Shown here one piece after another: positions 46,998 through 48,623 of a stretch of DNA of 64,000 bases. Below the pieces are notes generated by a model. It was not told the origin of the DNA and did not search any database. It was given only the letters and a program-made list of their open reading frames with translations. The translations under genes were made by a program, and so were the position numbers. The stretch covers positions 1-64,000 of the forward strand of contig JBEPVN010000002.1 of assembly GCA_041691015.1 (NCBI GenBank), given 5' to 3'. Position 1 is the stretch's first letter; every line of letters begins with the position of its first letter. The DNA is from Parachlamydiaceae bacterium. Its GTDB lineage: Bacteria; Chlamydiota; Chlamydiia; Chlamydiales; Parachlamydiaceae.

Positions 46998-48623
46998 TTA
47001 ACTAAAAAAAGATCGATTCACTAAAAGTACTTTTGGGACCTTTAAGGCACGTGCCACTTTTATTGCATTTTGAGTGTTAAGTGGAAGAATATTATTTTCA
47101 AATTGATTTATCTTTTTAAGATCTATTTTGGTACTTTTAAGTTTTTTAGAAAGTTCTTTCTGTTCCATATTTTTACTTACCCGAAGAATCATCATCGATT
47201 TTCCTCGGATATTTCTTTCCTTTTTCCTCATCTGACTCATATAGTCGCTAATTTTTTTGTTAAGTTTTTTCAGTTCTTCTTTAGAAGCATGTGCCTCAAT
47301 TTTAGATGAAGTAGCTTTGCATATAGCCGACGAATCCAAACTAAAAAGTTTTTGAAGTCTTATTCTGTCCTTGCCCTTCATTGTTTTTATAAGGACCTTT
47401 TTAAAAACTACAAAATAATTAGGGGGTGTTTTAACATCTTGAATACGAGCTAAAACTTTATGCGCTAAAATATAGATTCTATTCATAATTTTAGCTTGTC
47501 CAGATACGTCCCGTCTCATAGCTTCCATGCGAAGCTTTAACATGACATCGCATTTTTTTTTGGATGTTTTTTTATCTATAAACATATCAAGTTGGTTAAA
47601 AACCCAAGTCTTAAGATTTTTTTTAAAGAATTTATTTAAAATTTCCATTTCGCTAGAAAAAACTTTAATTGCTTCTTTTGTGTCACTATCCTTAAATTTT
47701 TTTTGTTTTGCCTCAAGTATTTCTGTTGTTAGCGCTTGGATAAACTTTGCCATCGCAGCAACCGGCATTATTTTTCCCTGTGCTGCTTTATTGAGTATTT
47801 TAAGAGCTAGAGTGCTAAAGTCTGAATCATGTTTAGTACCGTCTATCTTAATGTCTGCTTGATTAATGCAAATTGGGAGTGCCATAGTAGAGTTCATGCG
47901 AATGTACGTATACGTGTAGGGTAGGACCGTGACCTTTTTCTTCCTACTCTCTTTATGATAAGCTATTAAACTTGGGAAAGTACTGCCGTGAGCCGCATTT
48001 CTTTTACAAACAGTTTTTCCTTTGCCCTTAAAATTAACACGAAGTTTGGTAGCACTAACAGCTTGATGATGAGTCGGCGCAACTTTAAAGATAAGTCCTG
48101 TACCAAAACAACAGCTGGTTAGTTGCAAAAGAAAATGTTCAATACGCCTTAAAAGATGTTCATTGATTGAGGGGCTATATATTTCAAGCAACGATCTCGT
48201 GTTTAACCAAACATCTCTTTCTTCTTTAGAATTTACAAAAATAGTTTTACTTAAAAATGTATTATCTTCATTAACCGTCTTTTCAATGGCTAGCTGAAAA
48301 GCTTTTCGTTTAGAGACTTTTGGGAGTTTATTTTGTTTATTCTTATGTCTATTTTCAATTTTTTTTTGAAATTTCGTTATTTTATTAAGCCGAGTTTTAA
48401 GAATTTTAAGACTTTTGTGACGTTTTAAATTTTTCTTATTAATTTTAGGCTTTGAATAAAGATAAGAAACGTTATGCTCAAAAACATGCTCATCTTTTAT
48501 AGAGATAGACTCATTAAATGGAAATTTGTAAAACTCATTGGTTTTTCTCTGTTCAGTCAGATCTGCTTTTGGTCCCAAATCACCTGATTTAATTAGATTC
48601 GGTACGTAATTTTGAATAGTCAT
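46998..48623 (-). CDS. Large lysine-rich hypothetical protein (541 aa) with a C-terminal helix-turn-helix (XRE-like) segment; no recognisable catalytic domain
   Basis: Uninterrupted ORF immediately upstream of umuD-umuC on the same strand; C-terminal MEQKELSKKLKSTKIDLKKINQFENNILPLNTQNAIKVARALKV resembles an HTH_XRE; very AT-rich. Confidence 0.55.
   Translation of the reverse strand: MTIQNYVPNLIKSGDLGPKADLTEQRKTNEFYKFPFNESISIKDEHVFEHNVSYLYSKPKINKKNLKRHKSLKILKTRLNKITKFQKKIENRHKNKQNKLPKVSKRKAFQLAIEKTVNEDNTFLSKTIFVNSKEERDVWLNTRSLLEIYSPSINEHLLRRIEHFLLQLTSCCFGTGLIFKVAPTHHQAVSATKLRVNFKGKGKTVCKRNAAHGSTFPSLIAYHKESRKKKVTVLPYTYTYIRMNSTMALPICINQADIKIDGTKHDSDFSTLALKILNKAAQGKIMPVAAMAKFIQALTTEILEAKQKKFKDSDTKEAIKVFSSEMEILNKFFKKNLKTWVFNQLDMFIDKKTSKKKCDVMLKLRMEAMRRDVSGQAKIMNRIYILAHKVLARIQDVKTPPNYFVVFKKVLIKTMKGKDRIRLQKLFSLDSSAICKATSSKIEAHASKEELKKLNKKISDYMSQMRKKERNIRGKSMMILRVSKNMEQKELSKKLKSTKIDLKKINQFENNILPLNTQNAIKVARALKVPKVLLVNRSFFS

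Follow-up and report, generated by a model that had tools for sequence, protein, structure and literature searches.

What kind of protein is encoded by the gene at 46998 to 48623 (minus strand) of the stretch of Parachlamydiaceae bacterium DNA that we analysed (assembly GCA_041691015.1, contig JBEPVN010000002.1, positions 1 to 64,000; hereafter the window), and does it have anything to do with the umuD- and umuC-like genes directly 3' of it? Transcription factors are very few in chlamydiae, and almost no work has been done on the regulators of the environmental ones. The initial annotation of this DNA described a lysine-rich open reading frame (ORF) of 541 amino acids (aa), without recognisable enzymatic motif, that ends with an XRE-type helix-turn-helix (HTH) and leads a umuDC operon; as possible roles it proposed a stand-in for a missing LexA, a mobile-element protein, or a component of an uncharacterised system. 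The ORF, which starts with ATG, was found in the position and size described, and its product is a Lys-rich basic protein made up of an uncharacterised body and a C-terminal XRE HTH. The reading that we favour, with moderate confidence, is that of a stand-alone chromosomal one-component transcription regulator with a novel input domain, to which umuDC is adjacent only incidentally.

The relatives of the protein were difficult to collect. Word-indexed protein searches performed poorly because Lys-rich, low-complexity words flooded the candidate list: the protein itself retrieved a single relative (33 % identity), and an 80-sequence profile recovered the protein alone. An exhaustive HMMER search was required, and against 1.84 billion representatives (clusters at 50 % identity) it returned 203 proteins at E<=1e-3, 103 at E<=1e-10 and 18 at E<=1e-30, mostly 470-580 aa long, with some of ~700 aa. 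The species genomes of GTDB were also scanned for a short motif. A two-sequence pattern gave zero matches there, the window's own genome included, and NAAHSST[FIL]P, derived from a 20-sequence alignment, gave 13 loci, all in metagenome-assembled genomes (MAGs) named Parachlamydiaceae, Rhabdochlamydia, Chlamydiales or Chlamydiae, plus three Verrucomicrobia-labelled bins. The family is found almost only in Chlamydiota MAGs, together with a few Verrucomicrobia-labelled bins. Public pipelines already name the relatives 'XRE family/helix-turn-helix transcriptional regulator', and the papers searched yielded no description of the family, its body domain or its chlamydial restriction; the passages reached by term searches in papers on chlamydial transcription factors (PMC4652624, PMC4989314, PMC6426960) do not mention it. 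As for the pseudogene-like decay or non-conservation that the initial annotation had named as grounds for doubt, the protein aligns to the family over its full length and keeps every invariant column, so it is an intact, conserved member and not a decaying pseudogene.

What, then, does the body look like? With an 80-sequence alignment, AlphaFold2 (AF2) produced a model with a predicted local distance difference test score (pLDDT) of 92.9 and a predicted template-modelling score (pTM) of 0.91; with a 2-sequence alignment the pLDDT was 45.7 and the model was not usable. The two scores of the former indicate a single compact unit, as far as the prediction goes. The first ~10 residues are disordered in the model. 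In the predicted body a long helix (residues 150-172) precedes a sheet of six to seven strands (178-250); a helical bundle occupies 251-445, and a 36-residue helix (448-483) then continues into the HTH. Its conserved core, encoded at 47634 to 48191 (minus strand), spans residues ~145-330, with the long helix, the sheet and helices. H212, P217, N244, N254, D257 and N278 are invariant in the family and all kept by the protein, and H156, R160, Q167, Q187, A210, A211, T215, T246 and D261 are nearly invariant. The family motifs are RNAAHSSTFP (RNAAHGSTFP in the protein), NST and INxADIxIDG, and an N-terminal motif, GP...R..Y....NET.S..D, is likewise conserved and structured. Members of ~700 aa have the same two-part plan, with no known domain added.

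The body of ~475 aa has no match in Pfam, NCBIfam, PADLOC, PHROGs, PDB or BFVD, and no recurrent match to it came from a Pfam scan of 80 members at E<=1 or from the NCBIfam, PADLOC and PHROGs scans. Two isolated hits, one to REase_II in one member (E 0.004) and one to argD (E 0.023), were dismissed as chance. The check by remote homology suggested in the initial annotation was thus answered for one part of the protein, the HTH, which matches XRE structures, and left the body without any detectable relative. It is possible, though we think it rather unlikely, that this body presents a His/Asn/Asp centre in a previously unseen fold, as part of a regulator specific to Chlamydiota or to the Planctomycetes-Verrucomicrobia-Chlamydiae (PVC) group, or of an enzyme tethered by its HTH.

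The C-terminal domain is encoded at 47019 to 47198 (minus strand; residues ~476-535) and is entered from the long helix 448-483. On its own, the protein scores 19.8 bits against Pfam HTH_3 (PF01381; E 8e-4, residues 479-530), which does not reach the gathering threshold (GA) of 23. At the level of the family the assignment is firmer: HTH_3 is matched by 51 of 80 members at E<=1 and by 40 at E<=0.01, with a best value of 4.2e-11, and the family profile matches C.BclI and other XRE structures at 1e-5. R481 and E509, the usual structural pair of the XRE fold, are conserved in 97 % of members, and the five-helix lambda-repressor-like fold is present. Fold and family-level profile place the protein in the XRE HTH superfamily, and its last ~65 residues are best read from these profiles as an XRE/Cro-C1 HTH, as the initial annotation had it.

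The annotation was also right to call the C-terminal position atypical. In characterised XRE regulators the HTH is mostly N-terminal, whereas here it follows a body of ~475 aa, an unusual arrangement that sets the protein apart from P22 c2, lambda cI, C.AhdI, ClgR, DdrO and SaPI Stl. Compared with the RRNPP family (PlcR, PrgX, Rgg, ComR), the domain order is reversed; the body shows no TPR-like similarity and is built on an alpha/beta core in which His, Asn and Asp are invariant, and no peptide-signal gene lies nearby. A further likeness is to MBF1/EDF1, to which the family profile aligns weakly (E ~1e-3) over the long helix and the C-terminal XRE-type HTH; 12 of 80 family members match aMBF1 (TIGR00270). 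However, this similarity is limited to the linker helix and the HTH, and MBF1, with ~150 aa, has no equivalent of the body.

From these parts a mode of action can be sketched for the one-component regulator that we favour. Two parts are found in one polypeptide in all members, those of ~700 aa included, and no conserved partner gene accompanies them; the role of the body as input is one part of this scheme that we infer. The HTH would bind DNA. The body would serve as an input module that binds a small molecule or a protein, or performs a reaction, at its invariant polar cluster, and it may also mediate oligomerisation. The signal would then pass through the long helix 448-483 straight into helix 1 of the HTH.

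Several points weigh against this scheme. DNA binding by the HTH is deduced from sequence resemblance, and the HTH of the protein is divergent, with DLKKINQFENN in the recognition-helix region against SQxTISRxE in the family, and alone scores below the Pfam threshold. No operator-like palindrome is shared upstream of family genes. That the invariant residues cluster in space is assumed from the predicted model, and invariant His, Asp and Asn would suit a sensor pocket no better than they suit a metal or catalytic centre. The last point leads to the main alternative, which we hold possible but distinctly less probable: the body would be catalytic (a nuclease, a transferase or an enzyme that modifies DNA or RNA, for instance) and use the invariant His/Asn/Asp as its active or metal site, with the C-terminal HTH serving only to deliver it to nucleic acid. 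The position of H212, N244, N254, D257 and N278, and of H156, R160, Q167, Q187 and D261, in a compact alpha/beta core speaks for an enzyme, as does the basic isoelectric point (pI) of the family (median 9.2). Yet no enzyme family matches by sequence or fold, and no partner genes such as a methylase or an immunity gene were found. The patterns of HNH, HUH, protein/aminoglycoside kinase, HipA, ADP-ribosyltransferase, GHKL and HExxH/ImmA, compared by eye, gave no consistent fit in order and spacing. The earlier statement that there is no recognisable enzymatic motif holds in every library searched, though the body does have invariant polar residues.

The composition of the protein raises a further alternative. 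Lysine makes up 16.3 % of its residues, the highest content among the 33 tabulated window proteins (8.4 +/- 2.0 % in the other 32, maximum 13.0 %); its pI is 10.2 and its net charge ~+67, and its gene has 31.7 % GC against ~37.5 % for the window, which bears out the description as K-rich and AT-rich. Much of the Lys excess is located in an insertion at residues ~56-130 (48234 to 48458, minus strand; 26.7 % K, net +20) that is predicted to be helical, with pLDDT mostly >85; besides the protein, only its 7 closest relatives have an insertion at this position. With such a charge, an insertion that resembles a nuclear-localisation or histone-like sequence, a disordered stretch of ~10 residues at the N-terminus and a family confined to host-associated chlamydiae, the protein could be a nucleoid-associated protein (a non-specific DNA coat like Hc1/Hc2) or an effector translocated to the host nucleus. 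We consider this improbable. With a family median of 8.4 % K, the Lys richness is a peculiarity of this lineage and not a trait of the family. What the family conserves is a canonical XRE HTH and a folded core that has the invariant polar residues. The N-terminal motif, being conserved and structured, is not typical of a secretion signal. Under the one-component reading, the insertion would add non-specific affinity for nucleic acids.

If the protein is a regulator, is it the regulator of umuDC? This was approached from both sides. The window UmuD, UmuC and six other neighbours were searched by tblastn at 21 family loci, covering 8-10 kb on each side or up to the contig end, and none of these eight genes was found at any of the 21. 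For three additional places (P0008, P0107, P0152), the gene tables list neither an S24 gene nor a Y-family polymerase gene. Together, the 21 loci and the three gene tables represent ~17 independent family contexts, and none of them has umuDC. From the other side, close relatives of the window UmuD (up to 84 % identity) are encoded at 80 metagenome loci, 73 of which also have umuC, and no family member occurs in any of the 80. The co-occurrence with umuDC that the initial annotation proposed to look for in relatives is therefore not conserved, and a gene "leading" a umuDC operon is not what the family contexts present.

The contexts themselves are chromosomal and all different, including S21/DnaJ/FtsK, aconitase/MgsA/TGT, ribosomal-protein and MFS/SDR neighbourhoods. 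Clustering of ORFs across the family loci gave no conserved neighbour except for synteny within Rhabdochlamydia, so a multi-gene partner of the kind implied by "a component of an uncharacterised system" was not found. Beside two of the closest relatives, large ORFs end 24-37 nucleotides (nt) before the family gene (L015, 251-3277, 1008 aa; L017, 3274-4914, 546 aa); they have no Pfam domain and are unrelated to one another, to the family and to the window.

The chromosomal settings also bear on the proposal of a mobile-element protein, whether from a plasmid (Rep or partition) or from a phage (repressor or antirepressor). XRE HTH proteins are frequent on mobile elements and repressor families of PHROGs do match the HTH part, but family relatives are absent from 72,556 plasmids and 50,697 phage records (zero tblastn matches in each) and from an IMG/VR scan, the family lies in chromosomal housekeeping regions, and the gene is single-copy in the window. 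Pfam, NCBIfam and PHROGs matched nothing in the family but the HTH, with no Rep, Par or Ant homology. This proposal we regard as the least credible of all.

In the window, the umuD-like gene (46403 to 46918, minus strand; 171 aa; Peptidase_S24 6e-33, NF007621 171 bits) begins 79 nt downstream of the gene under study, on the same strand. It is followed by the umuC-like gene (45126 to 46406, minus strand), which encodes a Y-family polymerase with IMS, IMS_C and DUF4113 and scores 389 bits against PRK03609, under the model cutoff of 431. The likely true start of the latter, ATG at 46406-46404 (MSHFILADCNNFY), overlaps the umuD stop TGA (46405-46403) as ATGA, so the earlier description of the pair as translationally coupled is reasonable. 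Between the window and its six nearest cassettes the DNA similarity is 66-73 % and spans ~46980 to ~45160: it starts ~18 nt past the stop of the upstream gene and ends with umuC, with nothing common beyond. These limits mark umuDC as a discrete, self-contained and horizontally mobile module at ~45160-46980. It is unusual to find such a module in an apparent chlamydial chromosome: Chlamydiae are reported to lack Y-family polymerases or to be depleted in them (PMC12926913). Among annotated proteins, the closest relatives of its UmuD (55-64 % identity) come from plasmids of Legionella and Synechocystis, and the sharp ends of homology are consistent with horizontal acquisition of umuDC among amoeba-associated bacteria.

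The 79-nt spacer holds an operator-like 22-bp palindrome, TTGATTAGTGTGCAATAATCAA (46945 to 46966, minus strand), that belongs to the umuDC cassette. It sits between a -35-like TTGTTT and a -10-like AATAAT, overlapping the latter, and is unique in the window, with 0.03 occurrences expected by chance. Of the 80 metagenome umuD loci, 14 have the same palindrome in this place with <=3 mismatches, although their upstream genes are unrelated, and by eye it was also recognised 5' of umuD on two Legionella plasmids, from L. adelaidensis and L. pneumophila Lens. The conserved form, TTGATTAnTGTACAnTAATCAA, overlaps the -10-like element of the cassette; besides the window, this observation refers to L022-L060, L102 (~2905-2930) and L103 (~1221-1243). 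The adjacency to the gene under study is best explained as a one-off and incidental one that indicates no functional tie, because co-occurrence is missing in both directions, the homology has sharp bounds, and the cassette has its own promoter-like elements and operator-like palindrome. As a separately mobile unit, umuDC would have landed, or been retained, just 3' of the gene. Read-through from the gene into umuDC is conceivable, since the 79-nt gap has no terminator-like site.

These data also decide how much weight to give to a dedicated umuDC regulator that replaces LexA, with its HTH on the umuD promoter and the three genes as one unit. Lineages without the canonical repressor can use other S24 proteins for the SOS response, namely UmuDAb in Acinetobacter, HdiR in Streptococcaceae and a non-canonical LexA in Bacteroidetes (PMC4807011, PMC8565304), and a review tabulates C. 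trachomatis, the studied member of the lineage, as lacking LexA, and L. pneumophila likewise (PMC9343593). The likeness is that of an HTH protein beside error-prone polymerase genes, and the shared strand, short gap and missing terminator would suit a common unit. However, umuDC is in no family context, and the 80 umuD loci without a family member include cassettes 70-73 % identical in DNA. The operator-like palindrome and promoter-like elements travel with umuDC to unrelated contexts, Legionella plasmids among them, and the palindrome persists where the family is missing, which argues against the protein as its cognate binder. Unlike LexA, UmuDAb and HdiR, the protein has no S24 peptidase domain, Ala-Gly cleavage site or Ser-Lys dyad, and Peptidase_S24 has no match in it or in the 80 family members. 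The protein thus falls outside the LexA/UmuDAb/HdiR class, and it does not belong to the Rep, Par or Ant families either. On these comparative data the LexA stand-in is largely refuted, and we consider it very improbable.

A better candidate for the regulator of the cassette is the UmuD-like protein itself. In the window it has an Ala-Gly cleavage site (VSAGFPSPA) and, ahead of it, an N-terminal arm of ~45 aa, GGxRxGSGRPKGSGKFGxETKAIRIPV, for which the consensus is GGxRxGxGRPxGxGKFGExTKxIRIP; the arm has no relative in PDB. Among 72 de-duplicated loci, an operator-like palindrome accompanies 19 of 28 arm-bearing UmuD proteins and 3 of 44 arm-less ones (Fisher p=5e-8, a value confounded by relatedness). 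The co-occurrence of palindrome and arm suggests a self-repressing 'mini-LexA' in hosts with studied relatives that lack LexA, by analogy with UmuDAb, which the window UmuD-like protein resembles in its N-terminal extension and conserved palindrome and which the HTH protein upstream does not. Just 5' of the umuD operator-like site, two contigs carry repeats: a short direct repeat, TTTTGTCACTAAA, three times at ~5860-5920 of L023 (11.9 kb), and tandem units of the ACTAAGAACTAAG type at ~5880-5940 of L025 (17.7 kb). These resemble iterons, so the cassettes concerned may be plasmid-borne.

The window is ordinary chromosome and holds dnaE, hisS, a Mip-type FKBP gene, pheT and lnt. The 5' neighbour of the gene under study is a His_Phos_1 phosphatase gene, from which it is separated by an AT-rich spacer of 67 nt (48624 to 48690, minus strand). 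This spacer contains AAGGAA as ribosome-binding site, 7 nt 5' of the ATG, as well as TATAAT and the self-complementary ATAATTAT, which occurs twice; no operator for the gene could be established in it. A Cys-rich ORF of 277 aa (49339-50172, minus strand; no significant Pfam match) abuts the phosphatase gene on its upstream side with zero gap. As listed, the divergent ORF of an SNF2-family helicase (49946-52738, plus strand) starts within this ORF and overlaps it by 227 nt, so the true helicase start is probably further downstream. The pair of phosphatase gene and 277-aa ORF is found again in Logan contig L104 (SRR27874556; 8807 bp), where the His_Phos_1 protein is identical and the SNF2 gene is present as well. 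L104 stops ~90 nt past the phosphatase gene, right before the expected start of the gene under study. Apparently this region, rich in AT and Lys codons, breaks short-read assemblies, which may be the reason why exact copies of the gene are absent from the record. Elsewhere in the window, a 248-aa ORF at 42915-43661 (minus strand; GC 30.1 %, Lys 11.3 %) is a compositional outlier near the gene and has no significant Pfam match. Three other ORFs, of 621 aa (37909-39774, plus strand), 440 aa (53994-55316, minus strand) and 403 aa (55397-56608, minus strand), have no Pfam match at E<=1e-5 and are possibly additional lineage-specific proteins.

The negative part of the answer is useful in itself, as the idea of a LexA replacement fails and the data point to umuDC as a mobile unit that is complete in itself and has its own operator-like site. 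As for the protein, a phylum-restricted family of ~500 aa that joins a DNA-binding tail to a confidently predicted body without relatives deserves experimental attention. If the rather unlikely reading of a previously unseen fold with a conserved His/Asn/Asp centre is true, the family, as regulator or HTH-tethered enzyme, would link a signal from within the cell or from the host to the gene expression of environmental chlamydiae, and would enlarge by one the very small set of transcription factors that the phylum has.

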